Assembly (NCBI GenBank): GCA_902528545.1
Contig: CABZTB010000003.1
Location: 47,433 to 79,432 of the forward strand
Origin: an uncultured Pelagibacteraceae bacterium
Lineage (GTDB): Bacteria > Pseudomonadota > Alphaproteobacteria > Pelagibacterales > Pelagibacteraceae
Length of the DNA stretch: 32,000 bases
Reading direction: 5' to 3'
Shown here: positions 1-7,591 of the stretch, in pieces
Layout: each line of letters opens with the position of its first letter
How positions within the stretch are numbered: position 1 is the stretch's first letter
Notes under the pieces: generated by a model
Seen by the model: the letters and a program-made list of their open reading frames with translations, nothing else
What the model was told of the DNA's origin: nothing
Databases searched by the model: none
Program-made: the position numbers and the translations under genes

Positions 1-291
1 AGTATTAGAGGCAATATTGGATTTGATTTAGAAATGGATAATGGTTTATCTCTAATGACGATCTATGAAAGAAGTCAAAGTGAAATTGCTCATAGTGATA
101 CCTTATATATAGGGTTTGGCTATGTGCCTGTTGAAAGTACTGAGTATGCTATGAAATTAGATAATAATAAAGCATCTTTAAATTATAAAAGAAATTTAAG
201 TGGTTTTGATATCAACATAAGTTCCAACTATAGTTTAATAAGTGAAATTCCTGAATATGGAACAAACCTTGAATTAAGAAATACATTCTAA
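1..291 (+). CDS. C-terminal fragment of an outer-membrane beta-barrel / autotransporter-like protein (5' end lies outside the window)
   Basis: Frame 1 is open from nt 1, with no stop before the listed ATG at 34, so the ORF enters from the left edge. The sequence alternates hydrophobic and polar residues and ends ...LELRNTF. A C-terminal Phe is the usual OMP barrel signature. Confidence 0.4.
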   Translation, partial: SIRGNIGFDLEMDNGLSLMTIYERSQSEIAHSDTLYIGFGYVPVESTEYAMKLDNNKASLNYKRNLSGFDINISSNYSLISEIPEYGTNLELRNTF

Positions 292-329
292 ACTATTATT
301 AAGAGAGAGAATAACATATATTCATACTG

Positions 330-1742
330 ATGAAAAAATTCTTAGGCATAATTTTTCTGGGACTAATATTAAACAATAATGCTTTTGCTGGACCATATGA
401 AAGTTTGATAAAATTTAATAGATGGCTAAGCTTAAATGGTTATGATCAGTATTTAGATAAAACAGGAGATCCTGTTGATATGGTGCTTGATAGATCGCTT
501 TGTACATCTGAGGCAACTTGGGACGAATGTGTTGGAGCTGATGGAAAATTAATACCAACCAAAGATCGTAAATACACTCTAATTTATCCAAATAATTTAG
601 ATGTAAAAATAATGAAAAGGGGAGGTGGAAACGAAATAAATTATCAAGCCAATCCTAATTTTGGCACTTTACTCTTTTATGTTTTCCATTACTTAGAGGA
701 TATAAAAGGATTTGGTAAATATTTAGTACAACCATCTAAAAATCCAATTAAATTCAAATCAAATTTAATAGATGATAAAATTGTAAAAAAACAATTACAA
801 ACAAAAGCAATTCTAAGTTATCTTTATTTTGAAAATGATGAAATCATTGTTGATGAAATTTCACCTAAGGATCGTTTTGGTATTATCTTTAAAAATGATA
901 CTAAATGGAGTTCCATGTCGATGGGTAAAAGCTTAGTTTCTTACGTGACAGGTCATGCAATTTGTGGCGGTTATATTGATAGTATTGATACAACATTAAA
1001 CGACTGGCCTTTGATCAAGAACACTCTCTATTCTAAAAAAAAATTAATTGATATTCTAAACATGGCTGCTGGAGATCAACAATATGTTGATGATCATGAT
1101 GGATTAAAAAAGACTGGAAGATGGTACAATAGCTTTCCTATATCTGCTTTTGCTGATTTAGAATTAAAAGATTCAGAACCATCTAATTCTAAAAAGTATC
1201 ATTATAATGGTTTAGCAACAAATATTATAATGAACTATGTAATTTACAAAACTGATAAAGATTTTCAAAAACTTTTAAATGAAATTTTTCAAAAAAAAGC
1301 CAAAGTAGAAAATAGTGTATTTTTTTTAAAACAAAAAGGAATTTCAGATAAGCAAGGTCCAGGAAGATATTCATTTAGAGCTAGTAGATATGATTATCTA
1401 AGAATTGCAAAAGCAATCATGGATGATTATCAAAATGATACTTGTGTAGGTAAATATTTAAAAGAAATTCATGAAAGGAGAATTAAAAAAAATTTAAAAA
1501 AAGGACACGAACCTGGCTTTAATCTCTCGAGTACTTATGGTGGACAATTTCATATGGATTATCCAGGTCTAAAAAATAGGGTAGTTTTTGGTTTAGGAGG
1601 TTTTGGTGGTCAGGCGATTTTGATTGATGTGGAAAATTCAAGAATAGTTGTTCTAAATTCTTTGCATTATAATAACAAGAAATTCAAATATAATGTTAAA
1701 AAACTTTTATTAGATCCAATAAAAAACGGAAGATTAAATTAA
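330..1742 (+). CDS. Secreted serine hydrolase, beta-lactamase/PBP-related fold
   Basis: 470 aa. N-terminal signal peptide MKKFLGIIFLGLILNNNAFA|GP. SxxK-type motif in SMSMGKSLVSYVTGHAI. YHYNGLATNII resembles the YxN region. C-terminal GLGGFGGQAILIDVENSRIVVLNS resembles the third conserved box of class C-like hydrolases. Confidence 0.55.
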   Translation: MKKFLGIIFLGLILNNNAFAGPYESLIKFNRWLSLNGYDQYLDKTGDPVDMVLDRSLCTSEATWDECVGADGKLIPTKDRKYTLIYPNNLDVKIMKRGGGNEINYQANPNFGTLLFYVFHYLEDIKGFGKYLVQPSKNPIKFKSNLIDDKIVKKQLQTKAILSYLYFENDEIIVDEISPKDRFGIIFKNDTKWSSMSMGKSLVSYVTGHAICGGYIDSIDTTLNDWPLIKNTLYSKKKLIDILNMAAGDQQYVDDHDGLKKTGRWYNSFPISAFADLELKDSEPSNSKKYHYNGLATNIIMNYVIYKTDKDFQKLLNEIFQKKAKVENSVFFLKQKGISDKQGPGRYSFRASRYDYLRIAKAIMDDYQNDTCVGKYLKEIHERRIKKNLKKGHEPGFNLSSTYGGQFHMDYPGLKNRVVFGLGGFGGQAILIDVENSRIVVLNSLHYNNKKFKYNVKKLLLDPIKNGRLN

Positions 1743-1755
1743 AAAAATTTACTTA
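1731..1755 (+). repeat. Third copy of the core module (agattaaattaaaaaaatttactta)
   Basis: 23/25 identical to 3384-3408 (agataaaataaaaaaaatttactta). It overlaps the last three codons and the stop of the hydrolase ORF. Confidence 0.6.
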
Positions 1756-1773
1756 ATAATATTTATTCGAACC

Positions 1774-1791
1774 AGAGCATGACTAGAGCAT
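1774..1791 (+). repeat. Tandem word pair agagcat-gact-agagcat (11-bp period) upstream of the pilin gene
   Basis: agagcat at 1774-1780 and 1785-1791. It sits exactly 22 nt after the ctta of the junction, the same spacing as the word pair at 2356. Confidence 0.55.
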
Positions 1792-1813
1792 AGAGTGATG
1801 GTATAACAATGTT

Positions 1814-2314
1814 ATGAAACAAAAAGGTTTCACCCTAATAGAACTCCTAGTCGTAGTAGCCATCATTGGTATCCTTGCTGCAGTAGGAGTGGTTGTTTAT
1901 AATGGGTATACGAGTAATGCTAAAAATGCAGTTCTTAAAAATAATCATAAAACAATAATAAAAATGATTAAGGAAGATTTTGTTAAATGTGAAATTGAAG
2001 GAAAACTTGATAGATTTGTTTGGAGCAGTGGTGCAGTTAAAGAATATACAAACTGTACCCTCGCTTTTGATCAAGGTATTTTACAACAACATTTTTTTTT
2101 CGTCGGATTAAAAGACCCAATCTTTGTTAGACCTAGCGCTTGGGGAAATAGGAAAGTTATGGATTCAGGTGCCTTATGGGCTGGATCTCCAAGTGGTTCA
2201 TATAAAATAGGAAAAACTTTTGTTGAAAGTAGTTGGACTAATTTAAAAATCACAACATATATGACTGATGGGGTAACAAAATTAGAAGATAACTTAATAG
2301 TACCAAATAATTGA
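1814..2314 (+). CDS. Type IV pilin / pseudopilin-like protein with a prepilin-peptidase (class III) signal
   Basis: 166 aa. N-terminus MKQKG|FTLIELLVVVAIIGILAAVGVVVY is the canonical G/FTLIE cleavage and methylation motif plus hydrophobic helix. Variable C-terminal globular part has two Cys. Confidence 0.8.
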   Translation: MKQKGFTLIELLVVVAIIGILAAVGVVVYNGYTSNAKNAVLKNNHKTIIKMIKEDFVKCEIEGKLDRFVWSSGAVKEYTNCTLAFDQGILQQHFFFVGLKDPIFVRPSAWGNRKVMDSGALWAGSPSGSYKIGKTFVESSWTNLKITTYMTDGVTKLEDNLIVPNN

Positions 2315-2355
2315 ATTATTTTTATTGGAAAATCTTAATAATTAATTTTCAGATT
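2315..2355 (+). repeat. L module copy 1 (ATTATTTTTATTGGAAAAT + related tail)
   Basis: 19 nt at 2315-2333 are identical to 3586-3604. The following ~20 nt (cttaataattaattttcagatt) are about 65% identical to 3605-3624. Weaker similarity (8/12) extends 12 nt leftward. Confidence 0.7.
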
Positions 2356-2387
2356 CTCGGATCATTCTCGGATCTAGATAGATAAAT
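2356..2387 (+). repeat. Left bracket of the DUF4268 cassette: ctcggatc-att-ctcggatc + tagat + agataaat
   Basis: ctcggatcattctcggatct is identical to 3360-3379 and is followed by the shared agataaa core. The 8-mer repeats at 11-bp period. Confidence 0.8.
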
Positions 2388-2412
2388 TTATGATACATTA
2401 ATATAAAAAATT

Positions 2413-3354
2413 ATGGTTTCGAGACTTAAAAAACAAAAAATAAGAGATATCTGGAAAACAGAAGATAAAGACTTTACTCCATGGTTGGTTCAAAATATTG
2501 CACTTCTTAATGAAGATTTAGGCTTGAATATTCAAGATCCTGAAAGTGAAAAAAAGTTAGATACTTTCAAAGTAGATATCGTGGCTGAAGATGATCAAGG
2601 AAAAGTTATAATTGAAAATCAGTTTGAAAAATCTGATCACGATCATTTAGGAAAATTATTAACTTACATAAGTAACGTAGAAAATACTAAAAAAGCAATT
2701 TGGATTGTAGAAGATGTAAAACCAGAACATCACAGAGCAATAGAATGGCTTAATGCTAATGTAAAAACGTGCTTATTTTTTTTAGTGAAAATTCAAGTTT
2801 TTAAAATAAAGGATAGTGAGCCAGGAGCTCAATTCTTTTTATTATCAGGACCAGATGAAAATATTACGAAGGTTGGAAAAATTAAGGAAGAGGACTCAGA
2901 AAAAGAAAAAATTAAATTTAATTTTTGGTCAGCCTTTTATGAAAAATTAAAACAAAAAAGTAATATTTATAGTAACACAGCTCCAAAGGGCAGAAATTAT
3001 ATGGGTGTAAGTGCTGGGGTAAGAGGGGTCAACTACCTTGTTGCTGCAATGAACAGATCTGGCCAAGTAGAAATCTACATTGATAGAGGAAAAGAAGAGG
3101 GCAAAGAGGCAAATTTAAAAATTTATAATCATTTGGAGAAACATAAATCATCTATTGAAAAAGATTTTGGAAATGAATTAGAATGGAAAAGACTAGATGA
3201 CTCTAGGGCTTGTAGAATAGCATTTAAATCTGATTTAGGTGGTTTCCAAGATGAAGACACATGGGAGGATATTCACAATTTTCTAGTAGATCATTTGATA
3301 AAACTAGAAAAAGCTTTTAAAGGACCGATAAAAGAATTAGATAGGATTTTATAG
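2413..3354 (+). CDS. PD-(D/E)xK nuclease-like N-terminal domain fused to a DUF4268-like C-terminal domain
   Basis: 313 aa. FKVDIVAEDDQGKVIIENQFEKSDHDHLGKLLTY fits a D...E-x-Q/K restriction-endonuclease-fold core. C-terminal FNFWSAFYEKLKQK... resembles DUF4268 as I remember it. Not verified by HMM. Confidence 0.5.
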   Translation: MVSRLKKQKIRDIWKTEDKDFTPWLVQNIALLNEDLGLNIQDPESEKKLDTFKVDIVAEDDQGKVIIENQFEKSDHDHLGKLLTYISNVENTKKAIWIVEDVKPEHHRAIEWLNANVKTCLFFLVKIQVFKIKDSEPGAQFFLLSGPDENITKVGKIKEEDSEKEKIKFNFWSAFYEKLKQKSNIYSNTAPKGRNYMGVSAGVRGVNYLVAAMNRSGQVEIYIDRGKEEGKEANLKIYNHLEKHKSSIEKDFGNELEWKRLDDSRACRIAFKSDLGGFQDEDTWEDIHNFLVDHLIKLEKAFKGPIKELDRIL

Positions 3355-3357
3355 GAT
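3341..3357 (+). repeat. R module copy 1 (ATAGGATTTTATAGGAT)
   Basis: 17/17 identical to 7385-7401. It is internally atagga repeated at 10-bp period. It supplies the last codons and the TAG stop of the DUF4268-like ORF. Confidence 0.75.
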
Positions 3358-3359
3358 CC

Positions 3360-3392
3360 CTCGGATCATTCTCGGATCTGGGGAGATAAAAT
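3360..3392 (+). repeat. Right bracket of the DUF4268 cassette: ctcggatc-att-ctcggatc + tgggg + agataaaat
   Basis: Direct repeat of 2356-2387: 20 nt identical, 4-5 nt divergent, then the shared core. Confidence 0.8.
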
Positions 3393-3501
3393 AAAAAAAA
3401 TTTACTTATTCATCTTGTTCAATTATAAATATTGGCATAAACACTCATGAAATTCATTAATGCCCTCGTGGTGAAATTGGTAGACACAAAGGACTTAAAA
3501 T
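3383..3501 (+). repeat. Left copy of the 119-bp direct repeat (core + tRNA-Leu upstream region + 5' 40 nt of tRNA-Leu)
   Basis: Ungapped alignment with 7427-7545 gives 113/119 identities by my count. Four of the six mismatches cluster in the 10 nt just upstream of the tRNA 5' end. Confidence 0.9.
3462..3501 (+). pseudogene. Truncated tRNA-Leu(UAA) copy: acceptor 5' strand, D-arm, anticodon 5' stem and loop only
   Basis: gccctcgtggtgaaattggtagacacaaaggacttaaaat is identical to 7506-7545. Identity stops one nt past the anticodon loop. No variable arm, T-arm or 3' acceptor strand follows. Confidence 0.9.
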
Positions 3502-3523
3502 AGTTTGAATTGAGGAATTTCAG

Positions 3524-3550
3524 AGTCTCTTATAGTCTCTAATAGTCTTA
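3524..3550 (+). repeat. Three tandem words agtctct / agtctct / agtctta at 10-bp period
   Basis: Copies at 3524-3530, 3534-3540 and 3544-3550, beginning 23 nt after the tRNA-fragment breakpoint. Confidence 0.7.
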
Positions 3551-3585
3551 ATCCCTTATAATCCTAGAACTTTCTAAATCGTTGG

Positions 3586-3624
3586 ATTATTTTTATTGGA
3601 AAATATGAATAATAAATTCTGTTA
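3586..3624 (+). repeat. L module copy 2
   Basis: 3586-3604 is identical to 2315-2333. The tail atgaataataaattctgtta is related to 2334-2355. Confidence 0.7.
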
Positions 3625-3659
3625 AACTAGTAGCAAACTAGTAGTCAGAGAGATAAAAT
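3625..3659 (+). repeat. Left bracket of the 3-gene cassette: aactagtag-caa-actagtag + tcagag + agataaaat
   Basis: 33/35 identical to 7402-7436. The 8-mer actagtag repeats at 11-bp period. The core ends 5 nt before the ATG at 3665. Confidence 0.85.
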
Positions 3660-3664
3660 TTTAT

Positions 3665-5188
3665 ATGTTTGATTTTCTCAAAAACAATAAGTGGATTAAA
3701 TATTATGATGAAATTAAATCATATTTTAACCCAAGATTTTTAATTGATGCAATCATTCCTACAGATATCATTGATACAGCAAAAACAGTAGCAAGCAACA
3801 AATCAGAAGACCAAATATTTAGATTTATAATAGGGTGTGCAATAGTTAGAGGAATACTTATTGCAATTCCTGGAGATGTAGCTGTTGGATTATATATTGC
3901 CCAAGCTATTGATTTTGCAATGGCAGCTAACATAGCAAGACTAGTTGGTTTAGATTTTAAAAAAGAAAATATTTTTAAGTTGTTAGGAGCTGCAAGTCTT
4001 TCTGCAGTTGCTGTGCTTTATGCGTTTGAAAAAGTTTTAAATATTATATTTAAATTCGTAGCTAATTTACCAATTGCGGCACCAGCTTCATTTATTTCTA
4101 CTACAATTACTTCATTGTTTTTGGGTTTTTTTTGTTTTCTCGCTTTTACTGAAATTAAAAATAGTGGTAACAAAAAACTTAAAATACTATCTGTTGGAAA
4201 AATAGCTAAAAACGCATCTACCTTTACTTATAAAATCGGTAAAAATCTAATGACTTTGCTATTTAAAGATATGCCAGGACTTTTCAATCAAGTGAAAGAA
4301 AATGTTAAATCTTTTATGCAGCTAAACATTGACTATAAAAAAAAAATTAAGGGAGAATTTTTTTTTGCTGCAAGTATGGCTTATTTATTAGACGGAAAGA
4401 CACAAAGTTTTGATGGTCCTATAAGTCAAATGTGGCTGGATGCTTGGAGAATGTCGTATACCAATAAATTAGGCCCTGATGCCTCGATTGAAGATATTAA
4501 AAATTTAGCACAACAGTATCAGCCTGAGCAAATGCCTGGTGTTGAGAATTTGGTACAATCAAAATTTTATGAAATTTTGGAGGAAAACTATGAAAATATG
4601 GATGGAGATAATTGGTCAGCAAAACTTTTTACTGATCCGTCACATCCTGCTACTGATGTAAGATTTTATAACTCCGAGACTAATCAAACTTATGAAGTAA
4701 ACTACAAACTAACTGATGACTCTGAATATATTGAGCACCATTTAGAAAAATATCCTGATACACCAGTTGTAACTTCACCTGAAACAGCAGAGAAAATGAA
4801 TAATCCATTAGTCACCGGAGGTCAGTATGAAACTAAAGAAGTTATTAAATTATCAGATGATAATTTTATGAAATTATTAAATTCAAAACATTCACTTTAT
4901 TTGCAAGAGGGGGCCGCAGCAGCAGGTATTATTGTGCTATCAATTTATTTATTTCCTTTTTTCGTTCATTACTTCAAAGAAAATATTGATAGAGAACAAT
5001 TTATGTTAGCTGTTAAGAAATTTGTACCAGATGTTACTACCAAAACATTAAATAGAATAATAATGCTTACACTTATGGGGCCTATTTTTGGATGGTTTTT
5101 ATTAGCAAGATTTTTATTAAATATATCAACCCACGAAAGTGATAATGTTAAAGATATAAAGCAATTATTTTATAAACCCTTAGTATGA
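3665..5188 (+). CDS. Multi-pass membrane protein of unknown function (N-terminal DUF697-like region, central soluble domain, C-terminal TM hairpin)
   Basis: 507 aa. Hydrophobic segments at about aa 52-95, 105-125, 133-165, 415-437 and 465-487. ILIAIPGDVAVGLYIAQAIDFAMAANIARLVGL recalls the DUF697/YcjF-type motif (from memory, unverified). About 230 aa of central hydrophilic domain has no motif I recognise. Confidence 0.6.
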   Translation: MFDFLKNNKWIKYYDEIKSYFNPRFLIDAIIPTDIIDTAKTVASNKSEDQIFRFIIGCAIVRGILIAIPGDVAVGLYIAQAIDFAMAANIARLVGLDFKKENIFKLLGAASLSAVAVLYAFEKVLNIIFKFVANLPIAAPASFISTTITSLFLGFFCFLAFTEIKNSGNKKLKILSVGKIAKNASTFTYKIGKNLMTLLFKDMPGLFNQVKENVKSFMQLNIDYKKKIKGEFFFAASMAYLLDGKTQSFDGPISQMWLDAWRMSYTNKLGPDASIEDIKNLAQQYQPEQMPGVENLVQSKFYEILEENYENMDGDNWSAKLFTDPSHPATDVRFYNSETNQTYEVNYKLTDDSEYIEHHLEKYPDTPVVTSPETAEKMNNPLVTGGQYETKEVIKLSDDNFMKLLNSKHSLYLQEGAAAAGIIVLSIYLFPFFVHYFKENIDREQFMLAVKKFVPDVTTKTLNRIIMLTLMGPIFGWFLLARFLLNISTHESDNVKDIKQLFYKPLV

Positions 5189-5203
5189 GGCTACTTTTAA
5201 AAC

Positions 5204-5845
5204 ATGAAAATTAAGAACAAGAAACTATATAGAATAGATTTTAAACATAGCAAATCCACATGTAATTATGATGAGCATGATGATTATGATGAAATATATG
5301 GAAAGGCTGTAATTGATGAAGGAGATGACAATACTGAAAATTACGTTGATGCAGGTTTAATTGAAGCTTATTTTTTAAACGTAGAGGACATAAAAGAACC
5401 GGTTCATTTTTTATTAGACTCAATATCTGGTGATCATGAGCGTCTAGCTAAATATTTTGACGATGAAAATAAAATTAACGATAAAATTAGAAAATTACTC
5501 AAATTGAGCGAAGAGGATGTTAGAATGATGAGTCTAAATTTTCTCTATATTCATAAATTAAAAGTTTTAAAAAAGTACAGAGGATTAGGAATAGGAAAAA
5601 CCTTAATGCAAGCTATGATAAATGATTATAAAAGAGATAGTTCTCTTGCTTTTTTAATTGCTGCACCCTTGCAATTTAGTGGACGAGAAATAAACGATGA
5701 TCCCAGTGCTCAAGAAAGTTTTAACAATAGAACTGAAGCCCAATCAAGAAAGAAACTTATAGAGTTATATGAGAGTTATGGTTTTTTAAAGATACCTGGT
5801 GGTGAAGGTGATATGGTAGCTTATATTGGAGATTGGTTTTTTTAA
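5204..5845 (+). CDS. GNAT-family N-acetyltransferase with an acidic N-terminal extension
   Basis: 213 aa. LYIHKLKVLKKYRGLGIGKTLMQAMI is the GNAT motif A (R-x-x-G-x-G) acetyl-CoA loop. KLIELYESYGFLKI is motif-B-like. It starts 15 nt after the membrane-protein stop. Confidence 0.7.
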   Translation: MKIKNKKLYRIDFKHSKSTCNYDEHDDYDEIYGKAVIDEGDDNTENYVDAGLIEAYFLNVEDIKEPVHFLLDSISGDHERLAKYFDDENKINDKIRKLLKLSEEDVRMMSLNFLYIHKLKVLKKYRGLGIGKTLMQAMINDYKRDSSLAFLIAAPLQFSGREINDDPSAQESFNNRTEAQSRKKLIELYESYGFLKIPGGEGDMVAYIGDWFF

Positions 5846-7351
5846 CTACAAGTTAAAAGGTTTTAATTTAGCCTGGACAGTTGGTCTAGTTATACTAATA
5901 CCTTCATCATTAAGTTTTAAAGCTATATTTTTGTAAGAGAAACCATCTTTTCTCATCTCTTTAATCAAAGAGATATGCTCTTTATTTAGATTAACGAAAT
6001 AGGGTGTTTTAAAATTATTTTTTTTTGCGTATCTATCAAATTGACTCCTGCTAATTGGTTTGAATTTTTTTGAAAAATCTTTTCTAATATTTGCAAAAAG
6101 TCTTTGTTTTTTAATTTCCTTTTCTAAAAATTTTTTTTCTTTTTTTGTTAAATTAATGTGTTTATATTCCTTATTTCTTAAATTTGGGTTATTTCCATCT
6201 GGATATAAATAGAAAAATAATTCTTTAAATTTTTCTCCAGTAACAACGTTTGAAATGTGTGAGGGGATTACTTTTAATTTTGAAGCAATGGTGTCATATT
6301 TTAATCCATCATTATACATTTTATGTATATTAAAAGCTATTTTCTCTCTAGTCTTAATCATTTTAAGTGGAAAATTATTATTTGTTTTTGAAACTTTCTT
6401 AAAATTACCATGATTAATTATTGAATTTATTTTTTCTCTTATATTCTCTCTATAATCAATTCTAATTAATTTAATTTTTTTTAATTGAGCATATTTTTCC
6501 TTTTCTTTGTCTCTTTTCTTAATTTTCAATAACTCTATTTTTCCATTCCCTTTTTTATTTGCCCAATGTTTTGTTGTAGTATGTTGTTCACCATCTATTT
6601 CTATAAAAATTATATTTCCTTTTTTTTCTTTAATTACGATATCAATATAATGAACATTTCCTTTATATTTAATCTGTTGTTCTATTTCAAAAGGAATTCC
6701 TAAACTATGTAAAGCGTGATAAGCTATTAGTTCATATTTAGAGGCATTACAAAAACTACATTTAACACCTCTTGTTATTTTATTAATATTTTTCTCATGA
6801 ACCTTATGCCACTCATGTATATTACATTTGACTGAGTACTTTTCGTTAGATTTGTATTTTTTATCTTTTTTGATATTTACCGCATTAACGAACCCATTTG
6901 AATAATGATTGACTAACTTTATGATTTGTTTTCCAGTTTTGGGTTTATTAAGTTTACATGTCCCACAACCTCTTCCTTGCAAATGAATTTCATATTTTTG
7001 TTTATAATTCCCATTATGAGTAGGACAAAAATAAGTGATGAAGTTTTTTGAACCTTTATATTTAAAATTTGGGTATTGGTAGAAACTATTATGAACTTTG
7101 CTCAATCTTTCTACATGTTCCTTATTAGTAAGATTGAGATTATTACACTTTGAACAAAATGGGTTCTTTCTAAAGTTAGACATTCCCTGAATATTTTCGT
7201 GATTTTCTGAACAATGAAATTTGATTTTCCAAACTTTACCTTTTCCAGATTTTAGATGAAGTGCATCAATAAATTTCCATTTGAGCTTCTTCTTTTTGCA
7301 TTTAGATATAAATTCTTCTTTAATTTGAGCTATGTTTCTTAAACTTCTCAT
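5846..7351 (-). CDS. Zn-ribbon x3 + Vsr/DUF559-like (PD-(D/E)xK) endonuclease + tandem HTH modules; homing-endonuclease-like architecture
   Basis: 501 aa. Three C-x2-3-H-x14-18-C-x2-C units (aa 46-69, 108-132, 176-201). SKYELIAYHALHSLGIPFEIEQQIKYKGNVHYIDIVIKEKKGNIIFIEIDGEQH...KKRDKEKEKY...IKLIRIDY matches the Vsr/DUF559 pattern. HTH-like DGLKYDTIASKLKVIPSHISNVVTG and DGFSYKNIALKLNDEGISITRPTVQAKL. Confidence 0.65.
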   Translation of the reverse strand: MRSLRNIAQIKEEFISKCKKKKLKWKFIDALHLKSGKGKVWKIKFHCSENHENIQGMSNFRKNPFCSKCNNLNLTNKEHVERLSKVHNSFYQYPNFKYKGSKNFITYFCPTHNGNYKQKYEIHLQGRGCGTCKLNKPKTGKQIIKLVNHYSNGFVNAVNIKKDKKYKSNEKYSVKCNIHEWHKVHEKNINKITRGVKCSFCNASKYELIAYHALHSLGIPFEIEQQIKYKGNVHYIDIVIKEKKGNIIFIEIDGEQHTTTKHWANKKGNGKIELLKIKKRDKEKEKYAQLKKIKLIRIDYRENIREKINSIINHGNFKKVSKTNNNFPLKMIKTREKIAFNIHKMYNDGLKYDTIASKLKVIPSHISNVVTGEKFKELFFYLYPDGNNPNLRNKEYKHINLTKKEKKFLEKEIKKQRLFANIRKDFSKKFKPISRSQFDRYAKKNNFKTPYFVNLNKEHISLIKEMRKDGFSYKNIALKLNDEGISITRPTVQAKLKPFNL

Positions 7352-7384
7352 AATAATAAGTTTACAAAATTATTATTTATATAA

Positions 7385-7401
7385 ATAGGATTTTATAGGA
7401 T
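7385..7401 (+). repeat. R module copy 2 (ATAGGATTTTATAGGAT)
   Basis: Identical to 3341-3357. Here it is intergenic, upstream of the minus-strand nuclease start. Confidence 0.75.
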
Positions 7402-7436
7402 AACTAGTAGCAAACTAGTAGCCACAGAGATAAAAT
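7402..7436 (+). repeat. Right bracket of the 3-gene cassette: aactagtag-caa-actagtag + ccacag + agataaaat
   Basis: 33/35 identical to 3625-3659. Confidence 0.85.
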
Positions 7437-7545
7437 AAAAAAATTTTACTTATTCCTCTTGTTCAATTATAAATATTGGCATAAACACTCATGAAAATAA
7501 CTCATGCCCTCGTGGTGAAATTGGTAGACACAAAGGACTTAAAAT
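7427..7545 (+). repeat. Right copy of the 119-bp direct repeat (core + tRNA-Leu upstream region + 5' 40 nt of the intact tRNA-Leu)
   Basis: See 3383-3501. Confidence 0.9.
7446..7487 (+). promoter_or_regulatory. Candidate tRNA-Leu promoter region (duplicated at 3402-3443)
   Basis: Two sigma70-like readings are possible: ttactt-16-tataaa (7446-7473) or ttgttc-17-taaaca (7459-7487). Both lie 20-35 nt upstream of the tRNA 5' end. AT-rich context makes this weak. Confidence 0.3.
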
Positions 7546-7591
7546 CCTTGCCGCTTGCGGAGTGCCAGTTCGAGTCTGGCCGAGGGCACCA
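7506..7591 (+). tRNA. tRNA-Leu (anticodon UAA), class II with long variable arm, CCA encoded
   Basis: Manual fold. Acceptor gccctcg/cgagggc. Anticodon stem aagga/tcctt with loop cttaaaa. Variable arm gccgcttgcggagt. T-arm gccag-ttcgagt-ctggc. Ends in acca. Confidence 0.95.

Follow-up and report, generated by a model that had tools for sequence, protein, structure and literature searches.

The closest described counterparts of the repeated words at the junctions studied here are the arm-type sites of heterobivalent integrases, such as P1/P2 and P'1-3 of lambda and those of the P4-like integrases of HPI and HAI7 (PDB 3jtz, 3ju0, 3rmp). As in those systems, the words are short direct repeats with a spacing of 10-11 bp, stand on both arms and lie about 120-140 bp from the tRNA core, and the integrase of autonomous relatives appears, from its modelled structure, to have a distinct N-terminal domain whose fold is of the P4 arm-binding type. 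In contrast to known arm-type sites, the words are hypervariable among close relatives and occur as discrete alleles that co-vary with the N-domain, the sites of one arm lie inside the integrase's own first 25 codons, and the element supplies the tRNA 5' half together with its promoter. The junction system is most likely of a known arm-site kind with new variation.

Several mobile elements of marine bacteria share other parts of this arrangement. Virion-encapsidated integrative mobile elements (VEIMEs) are satellites of marine Pelagibacter phages (Eppley et al., 2022, PMC9618062), and the main text describing them makes no mention of tRNA or attP (PMC9618062). The autonomous relatives are alike in size (7.7-9 kb), in coding for a tyrosine integrase and a primase, in their presence in viral-fraction collections (IMG/VR) and in being integrated in Pelagibacteraceae genomes, and they alone combine a size of 5-13 kb with integrase plus replication genes and with viral-fraction as well as integrated occurrence. 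The window, that is the whole stretch of 32,000 nucleotides analysed, differs from VEIMEs in holding integrase-less derivatives only, without VEIME-type genes. Tycheposons of Prochlorococcus and the additive flexible islands of Methylophilaceae (PMC10872708) likewise consist of cargo units stacked at one tRNA, with repeated partial tRNA copies between them and highly variable cargo. The host is a different one here, and so is the integrase family as far as compared. To our knowledge, private arm words common to both flanks of a unit have not been described for either of these systems. Cis-mobilisable elements (CIMEs) and other att-only derivatives of integrative elements also keep att sites in the absence of a recombinase, so that any movement would depend on the integrase of a related element; the word alleles of the cassettes are common to autonomous elements, which is compatible with trans-mobilisation. 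Unlike CIMEs, the integrase-less units described here have their own conserved scaffold across many word alleles, suggestive of a non-autonomous lineage that is being propagated rather than of isolated decay events. Lastly, HTVC019P-type pelagiphages integrate into tRNA-Leu(TAA) with an attP that carries the 5' part of the tRNA (bioRxiv 10.1101/410191), and thus have both the target gene and this feature of attP in common with the present locus. HTVC105P shows a 43-nt exact match to these junctions. A pelagiphage attP was rejected, as HTVC105P, HTVC109P and MedDCM-S35-C6 share the 43-nt tRNA core only and their attP flanks have no modules or words in common with the junctions.

Layout of the junctions

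The junction features of the window are the following, with the basis of each in brackets:

1728-1755, plus strand: relic of the universal core motif and the start of the tRNA-Leu upstream region (repeat family D3/D5, sequence)
1771-1801, plus strand: private pair of the pilin-like cassette, ACCAGAGCAT, one base and ACTAGAGCAT, then the degenerate core AGAGTGATGG (sequence, word check)
2316-2333, plus strand: conserved left-arm block TTATTTTTATTGGAAAAT of cassette A (repeat comparison)
2354-2387, plus strand: left-arm private pair of cassette A, CTCGGATC at 2356 and 2367, and degenerate core AGATAAAT (sequence)
3341-3356, plus strand: ATAGGA twice with a period of 10, distal block of the cassette A right arm (word check, consensus)
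3358-3392, plus strand: right-arm private pair of cassette A, CTCGGATC at 3360 and 3371, and core GAGATAAAAT at 3383-3392 (sequence)
3393-3501, plus strand: upstream region and 5' half of tRNA-Leu(TAA) in a displaced copy, which ends in the anticodon loop, the crossover region (repeat family D1)
3524-3550, plus strand: AGTCTCT/AGTCTCT/AGTCTTA with a 10-bp period, 22 nt past the crossover, core-proximal left arm of cassette B (word check)
3587-3604, plus strand: conserved left-arm block of cassette B (repeat comparison)
3625-3659, plus strand: left-arm private pair of cassette B, ACTAGTAG at 3626 and 3637, and core GAGATAAAAT at 3650-3659 (sequence)
3665-7351, no strand assigned: cargo of cassette B (gene content, without recombinase)
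7385-7400, plus strand: ATAGGA twice, distal block of the cassette B right arm (word check)
7402-7436, plus strand: right-arm private pair of cassette B, ACTAGTAG at 7403 and 7414, and core GAGATAAAAT at 7427-7436 (sequence)
7506-7591, plus strand: intact tRNA-Leu(TAA), of which the 5' half and promoter are the element-supplied copy (RNA annotation)

The relic at 1728-1755 is fused to the tail of a left-arm module and forms a decayed junction upstream of the pilin-like gene; in relative L035, ACCAGAGCAT also stands where the right-arm module has its word. The AGTC triple is found in autonomous elements as well. The ATAGGA consensus was taken from the consensus line of a MAFFT right-arm alignment that included one truncated sequence. 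An Rfam search of the junctions found no known RNA.

Non-randomness, classes and conservation of the words

A letter check of the window found all the words listed by the first-pass annotation, each at its claimed coordinates. Exact tandem words (k of at least 7, period 10-11, at least two G/C) were counted in 633 bp of junction DNA (1743-1813, 2315-2412, 3355-3664 and 7352-7505), and the comparison with shuffled controls and with the intergenic DNA of the genome, which that annotation had called for, came out clearly: there were 8 in the junctions, against a mean of 0.045 and a maximum of 1 in 2000 dinucleotide-preserving shuffles and 9 in the other ~84 kb of crude intergenic DNA, an enrichment of more than 100-fold over both, in which the 8 events are interdependent, two pairs being paralogous copies and one triple being counted twice. 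The phased short repeats are genuine and depart far from chance expectation. Within the 1.11-Mb genome, CTCGGATC occurs 5 times and ACTAGTAG 14 times, and four copies of each lie in these junctions. We give almost no credence to the view that the repeats are due to chance or are passive scars (target-site or slippage duplications from cargo insertion), even though the direct repeat of ~33 bp that brackets each cassette superficially resembles a long target-site duplication. This view is already contradicted: the enrichment argues against chance, the words are kept while the spacers drift within one ~33-bp repeat, and the arrangement recurs in autonomous elements with the integrase gene inside.

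The words had been regarded as five unrelated ones, and they fall instead into three classes. Those that read agagcat, ctcggatc and actagtag are variants of a single class, ACYNGnnnn twice with an 11-bp period and with GAGATAAA 3-5 nt further on; the palindromes GATC and ACTAGT, to which attention had been drawn, are incidental to this consensus. AGTCTC x3 and ATAGGA x2 are two further classes, kept across cassettes. Both flanks of each cassette bear their own "private" allele at fixed distances from the tRNA-Leu crossover (14 cassettes from the window and relatives), with one pair about 140 bp upstream of the anticodon-loop crossover and the other about 122 bp downstream of it, in these 14 as in all sampled autonomous elements. 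In the 14 cassettes, which include those of the window, the left arm repeats the right-arm pair of the same cassette at +158 to +164, counted from the start of the tRNA; the copies mismatch at word positions in 0-2 of the 14 and at spacer positions in 5-7. There is, as in arm-type systems, a short word on both arms that is distant and distinct from the core crossover sequence. The orthologous junctions, for which a check of conservation had also been proposed, bear this out: at 18 loci of the same genus the scaffold is kept, the word pair is cassette-specific with both half-copies changing together, and within the 14 cassettes words are kept while spacers drift. Across cassettes and autonomous elements the AGTC words are constant and their spacers variable, and CCCAC-type words stand in for them beside integrases that are 29-33% identical.

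The pair and GAGATAAAAT might also be read as a promoter or regulatory module for the first cargo gene and the tRNA, with TAAAAT as a -10-like element below a variable upstream element. At 3665 the ATG of the 507-aa gene does follow TAAAAT by 6 nt, which would leave room for a leaderless transcript. We nevertheless hold this reading to be quite improbable, as a consensus promoter scan returned no site using the words, the module falls inside the integrase coding sequence in autonomous elements, it lies at varying distances from the start codon of the first cargo gene, and the co-variation of four to five copies would be unexpected for a promoter.

Autonomous relatives and their integrase

The autonomous relatives are elements of ~7.7-9 kb from metagenomes and Pelagibacteraceae single-cell genomes that combine the cassette layout with a 545-aa tyrosine integrase and a primase; examples are a circular 7.7-kb IMG/VR contig, other metagenome contigs and integrated elements in three Pelagibacteraceae single-cell genomes. 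Each has one word common to the copies of both arms, one arm holding two of them and the other three, and the left-arm pair and a third copy fall within the first 25 codons of the integrase. Nine word types occur in total, several of them identical to cassette words; for instance, ACTAGTAGC of cassette B occurs in contig Ga0070750_10018597. A Xis-like ORF of ~100 aa comes after the integrase, and the small ORFs of these elements gave no match in a Pfam search. Viral-contig scans yielded 0 matches for the core-plus-promoter motif, 0 for the left-arm block and, for the ATAGGA pair, one contig, itself ending at the motif.

The 545-aa protein is an integrase (phrog_1, E = 4e-20), and a homologue 56% identical to it passes the PF00589 cut-off. 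For an AlphaFold model of its N-terminus (pLDDT 75.5), the top three PDB matches are the arm-type binding domains of the HAI7, HPI and P4-like integrases (3ju0, 3jtz, 3rmp), with a probability of 1.0, target TM-scores of 0.63-0.72 and a Foldseek E of about 0.01. The N-terminus thus appears to adopt a P4-type arm-binding fold, an assignment made from the predicted fold: its sequence had no match to Pfam arm-binding families, the N-terminus and the full length had none in PDB sequence searches, and full-length integrases had none in NCBIfam.

The N-terminus is also the most divergent part of the integrase, its first 150 residues being ~50% identical on average and the rest 57-77%, and in elements that are 91-96% identical elsewhere, the arm words and integrase codons ~1-130 are precisely where sharp divergence sets in. 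In strands 2-3 of the N-domain the variable residues alternate. Word distance against N-domain divergence gave a rho of -0.70, and of -0.49 once C-domain divergence was removed, over 36 sequence pairs that are non-independent. Words and arm-binding domain therefore co-vary, and part of this covariation could come from linkage or modular exchange, because in the circular form one contiguous stretch of ~700 bp holds the words, the core and the codons of the N-domain. The AGTCTCT triple stays constant while the N-domain diverges. It was this near-core triple that had been expected to be the arm-type site; the variable pairs are better candidates, because they co-vary with the N-domain and the triple does not. 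The wider proposal of the first-pass annotation, that the same-face tandem words belong to an integration system, arm-type sites included, gains support from the conserved junctions and the modelled P4-type fold of the relatives' integrase, and its word classes, arm candidate and binder have been revised.

Other proteins of the element might read the pairs. It is possible, if unlikely, that the pairs serve as operators or binding sites for a specificity protein of the element other than the integrase; candidates are a directionality factor and the variable protein of ~115 aa that is encoded downstream of the integrase. The ~115-aa ORF is indeed a second hotspot of divergence between L113 and L114 (63% identity vs 91% for the whole element), a collinear pair used here because a whole-element comparison of L097 with L101 is confounded by their differing gene content. 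However, in the contrast between CTAGGGTC and CTAGGATC the ~115-aa protein is 90.5% identical, while integrase residues 60-105 fall to 70%; the protein belongs to no recognisable DNA-binding family, and the operator of a lost gene would leave unexplained that four word copies are kept on both arms of integrase-less cassettes at fixed crossover distances. Lineage-specific tandem direct repeats are typical of iterons, and the private pairs are iteron-like in being just such repeats; moreover, the primase of the autonomous elements is of the AEP type and has a helicase-like DUF5906 part. Replication-origin iterons read by this primase-helicase, as in phage P4 ori/crr, are nonetheless highly improbable, since L113 and L114 differ in their words (CCAGTACC vs CCAGCACA) while their primase regions are 90-100% identical (almost every 90-nt window, element positions ~2500-7500), the repeat does not co-vary with the primase-helicase initiator, and the words are symmetric about the crossover at fixed distances and retained by cassettes devoid of a replication gene.

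Integrase-less cassettes and possible gene capture at tRNA-Leu

The cargo of cassette B comprises a 507-aa membrane-like protein, a 213-aa GNAT protein and, on the minus strand, a 501-aa Zn-ribbon/Vsr-like/HTH protein, and no recombinase was found in the cassettes. Cargo proteins of 19 loci are nearly all singletons, and no protein family recurs across cassettes. For this reason, and since the 501-aa protein is present in only one of 301 genomes of the genus, the window's own, we judge this protein to be cargo and not the binder that it had been suggested to be; the likely binder is an integrase that this genome lacks. Neither the window nor its genome (91% completeness) contains an integrase of the 545-aa family or any PF00589 match, and the genomes of the genus mostly have one ~325-aa Xer-like gene, located elsewhere. 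The word sites in this genome may be inert fossils. ATAGGA x2 and TTATTTTTATTGGAAAAT are common to the integrase-less cassettes and missing from the sampled autonomous elements, indicating that the exact parent of the cassettes is unsampled. Integron attC sites are imperfect inverted repeats that fold as hairpins, with the IntI integrase adjacent. Integron gene cassettes (attC/IntI) were rejected, as all repeats here are direct and the genome has no PF00589 match.

We consider it probable, from sequence comparison and a modelled fold, that the junctions correspond to the arms attL and attR of small tRNA-Leu(TAA)-integrating elements and that the private pairs are putative arm-type integrase sites on integrase-less cargo cassettes. 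Small elements would integrate into the 5' half of tRNA-Leu(TAA) in a SAR11-type (Pelagibacteraceae) genome, with the crossover in the anticodon loop. The left arm would run from AGTC x3 at 10 bp through the conserved AT-rich block, the private pair at 11 bp and GAGATAAA to the cargo genes, and the right arm from ATAGGA x2 through the same private pair, GAGATAAAAT and the tRNA promoter to the tRNA 5' half. On each arm, two N-terminal domains of the integrase would be placed next to each other on one helix face while the catalytic domains act at the tRNA core, and each word allele would stand for an orthogonal specificity class. In the window, the cassettes would have lost the integrase and kept both arms, so that they would move only with a matching integrase in trans. 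The AGTC triple and the ATAGGA pair may be sites for an Xis/RDF- or host-type accessory factor, or extra integrase contacts.

SAR11 is the most abundant bacterial group of the surface ocean, and little is understood of the way in which its streamlined genomes come by their very variable island genes. For one hotspot, the junctions supply a cis-acting grammar, consisting of the tRNA-Leu core, the conserved triple and the private pair on both arms, and the likely enzyme family has been identified; annotators gain a simple means to delimit cassettes in SAR11 islands. If the alleles are orthogonal integrase addresses, this would explain how many unrelated cassettes can be stacked at one tRNA unscrambled, and it would provide a natural set of closely related integrases with differing arm specificities for studies of the evolution of arm recognition. 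A tentative and somewhat doubtful extension is that gene capture in SAR11 may have two tiers, in which a lineage of integrase-less cassettes with a common scaffold and orthogonal "address" words is stacked at tRNA-Leu, and rare satellite-type elements, through P4-like integrases with matching, fast-diversifying arm-binding domains, move them in trans. The arm words would then be specificity barcodes deciding which helper moves which cassette and keeping neighbouring units of an array from being recombined together, an integron-like function built on a lambda-type attP.

Phased words and module order in the tRNA-Leu(TAA) cassettes

The phased-word pattern is real and local. Every word that the first-pass annotation had reported at 10-11 bp spacing was found in its place in this SAR11-like genome (1.11 Mb, 29.8% G+C, 24 contigs, 91% complete). 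Tandem words were counted as maximal exact repeats of at least 7 nt that recur 10 or 11 nt apart and include two or more G/C. By this count there are 8 in the junction DNA (633 bp in all), which are not independent events as two pairs are paralogous copies, against a mean of 0.045 (maximum 1) in 2000 dinucleotide-preserving shuffles and 9 in the genome's other intergenic DNA (~84 kb, crudely delimited), an enrichment that bears out the annotation on this point. The few intergenic words of this kind outside the window, among them GTTTTGATTCA x2 and GTTAGTAA x2, lie at G000:C1:63003, C1:354578, C1:400209-400245, C1:433759 and C3:7404 (G000, the genome of the window).

Left arm and right arm denote the putative attL and attR flanks of a unit, with the crossover in the tRNA-Leu anticodon loop, and a private pair is a cassette's own word given twice at 11 bp. 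The window reads, in order:

1. 470-aa ORF
2. decayed junction with the agagcat pair
3. pilin-like gene
4. left-arm module with the ctcggatc pair
5. PD-(D/E)xK/DUF4268 gene
6. right-arm module: ATAGGA x2, ctcggatc pair, GAGATAAAAT, tRNA-Leu promoter, tRNA 5' half to the anticodon loop
7. AGTCTCT x3
8. left-arm module with the actagtag pair
9. three cargo genes
10. right-arm module with the actagtag pair
11. intact tRNA-Leu(TAA)

From this order, both complete cassettes, A (ctcggatc) and B (actagtag), are each flanked by their own pair. Homologues of two ORFs in window 1-1742, the partial one at 1-291 and the 470-aa one, are carried as cargo by cassettes of other genomes (L027/L033 and L034), which indicates that the array continues leftward as decayed cassettes.

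The cassette cargo proteins are nearly all singletons, with no recombinase among them. The 501-aa HTH protein (5846-7351, minus strand), which had been proposed as a binder of the words, was found in the window's genome alone out of 301 of the genus. It is cargo and may be a nuclease of the homing or defence type; it carries three CxxH...CxxC ribbons, a Vsr/MTES_1575-like core and HTH modules, with weak Pfam matches. A PF00589 search of the 91% complete window genome gave no match. A ~325-aa Xer-like gene is found in 117 of 151 genus genomes, most having a single one sited elsewhere than the cassettes, and that of G000 may be hidden in an assembly gap.

Site classes at junctions of related genomes

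The related loci come from Pelagibacteraceae single-cell genomes. Of 36 genomes sampled from the genus, 26 match the junction, and in many of these the tRNA 5' half is stacked in 2-4 copies. Across 18 fetched loci the scaffold is kept and the pair varies between cassettes, its two half-copies always changing jointly; all pairs fit ACYNGnnnn, which occurs twice at 11 bp ahead of GAGATAAA. In 14 cassettes, a further copy of the right-arm pair stands in the left arm of the same cassette, +158 to +164 from the tRNA start. Within these ~33-bp repeats the word positions are mismatched in 0-2 of the 14, compared with 5-7 for the inter-word spacer and the stretch preceding GAGATAAA, so that the words are indeed better conserved than their spacers, the outcome that the first-pass annotation had asked for in its conservation check. 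Moreover, several left-arm subtypes keep the AGTC triple while its spacers vary, and the ATAGGA pair is conserved among integrase-less cassettes. This comparison yields three site classes rather than the five unrelated words first described: agagcat, ctcggatc and actagtag are alleles of a single class, and AGTCTC x3 and ATAGGA x2 are two more, the latter specific to the integrase-less lineage.

Three other arrangements were seen. Inside the L021 cassette (G017:C5; oriented position 5996), whose two arms share the word ACTGGTACC, lies a 5' fragment that resembles tRNA-Leu but is divergent, as is the promoter that accompanies it; this could be an att fragment that was nested or captured. One left-arm subtype (L021, L023, L029, L034, L088, L113) has GCCGAGGGA directly after the crossover; this sequence is similar to the 3' strand of the tRNA acceptor stem and might therefore base-pair with the displaced 5' half. 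In L091 (G200:C1:467695-472353), a right-arm module (ATAGGA x2, word pair, GAGATAAAAC) nearly abuts the left-arm start AGTTTGAAT without the tRNA promoter and 5' half, followed by an integrase of the distant CCCAC-word type.

Autonomous relatives and the putative reader of the words

An IMG/VR scan for the AGTCTC triple returned three contigs with the triple after a tRNA-Leu 5' half, one of which (7.8 kb) has a terminal repeat and so represents a circle of ~7.7 kb. Its products include a 545-aa integrase (phrog_1, E = 4e-20; weak PF00589 match) and an AEP primase with DUF5906. The start codon of the integrase is ~50 nt past the triple, codons 1-25 hold word, word, GAGATAA, word, and in the opposite arm the tRNA fragment is preceded by word, word, GAGATAAAT. 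Metagenomes yielded further elements of this type, and others are integrated in the genomes of three Pelagibacteraceae single cells. Together these elements carry nine word types, a single word being common to both arms within each element, and several are also cassette words, such as ACTAGTAGC of cassette B. The integrase family is rare (8 of 301 genus genomes), and in that survey the window's genome has none. Contig L097 (Ga0209631_10011785, 7880 nt), in which the arms upstream of the two tRNA fragments are not quite alike (ggttAGATAAAT vs gggGAGATAAAT), looks like a concatemer or hybrid of two variants, not a clean terminal repeat.

Modelling of the integrase N-terminus (A2, 9 sequences) gave a beta-sheet with a helix after it (pLDDT 75.5). 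In the PDB this fold is closest to three arm-type binding domains, those of the HAI7, HPI and P4-like integrases, and matches ranked below them are noise. The N-terminus is also the most divergent part of the protein (~50% mean identity vs 57-77% elsewhere). Between CTAGGGTC and CTAGGATC elements, the C-terminal part is 94-96% identical and residues 60-105 70-72%, and nucleotide identity falls exactly at the words of both arms and codons 70-110; a same-word element pair has no dip. Elements L113 and L114, collinear over 8.6 kb at 91% identity, diverge in three places: the left-arm words together with integrase codons 1-130, the right-arm words, and a single small ORF. It could be argued that the words are iterons; however, the primase region of these two elements stays 90-100% identical in nearly all windows although their words differ, which argues against it. 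Word distance correlated with N-domain divergence at rho = -0.70, and at -0.49 after regressing out C-domain divergence, in sequence pairs that are not independent and with words, N-domain codons and other parts physically linked. The modelled N-domain fits as reader of the words.

A minor rival for this role is the ~115-aa product of the small ORF just downstream of the integrase (L113:9981-10325; L114:10002-10331; homologue L045:1968-2318), the sole other divergence hotspot between L113 and L114. It is 63% identical between these two, but 90.5% in the CTAGGGTC vs CTAGGATC contrast; it has no Pfam family (N-terminus MGTRGRPK / MSRKPGQPK) and may be a second specificity factor. The conserved ~100-aa ORF that follows (L113:10371-10694; L045:2367-2660; motif like ...RSTFYAWQ...), without a Pfam match, looks like an AlpA/Xis-type excisionase, and its product is a candidate binder of the AGTC triple.

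The private pairs are best read as arm-type sites for a P4-type integrase, one of the several kinds of site that the first-pass annotation had listed for same-face tandem words; the window's cassettes retain both arms of elements of this kind but lack the enzyme. An arm-type role, which the annotation had favoured for the AGTCTCT triple from its position, suits that triple less well: it is constant while the integrase N-domain diverges, with CCCAC-type words in its place beside distant integrases, and more likely serves a conserved partner, which could be a directionality factor, a protein of the host or some other part of the integrase.

Relation to known elements

Pelagiphages targeting the same tRNA have only a 43-nt core in common with these junctions. 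The autonomous elements are similar to the Pelagibacter-associated VEIME satellites, the main text on which (PMC9618062) contains no analysis of att sites. Stacked partial-tRNA arrays are already known from additive islands and tycheposons. What is new is that the arm words are hypervariable and co-varying, and that an integrase-less cassette lineage retains them on both flanks.
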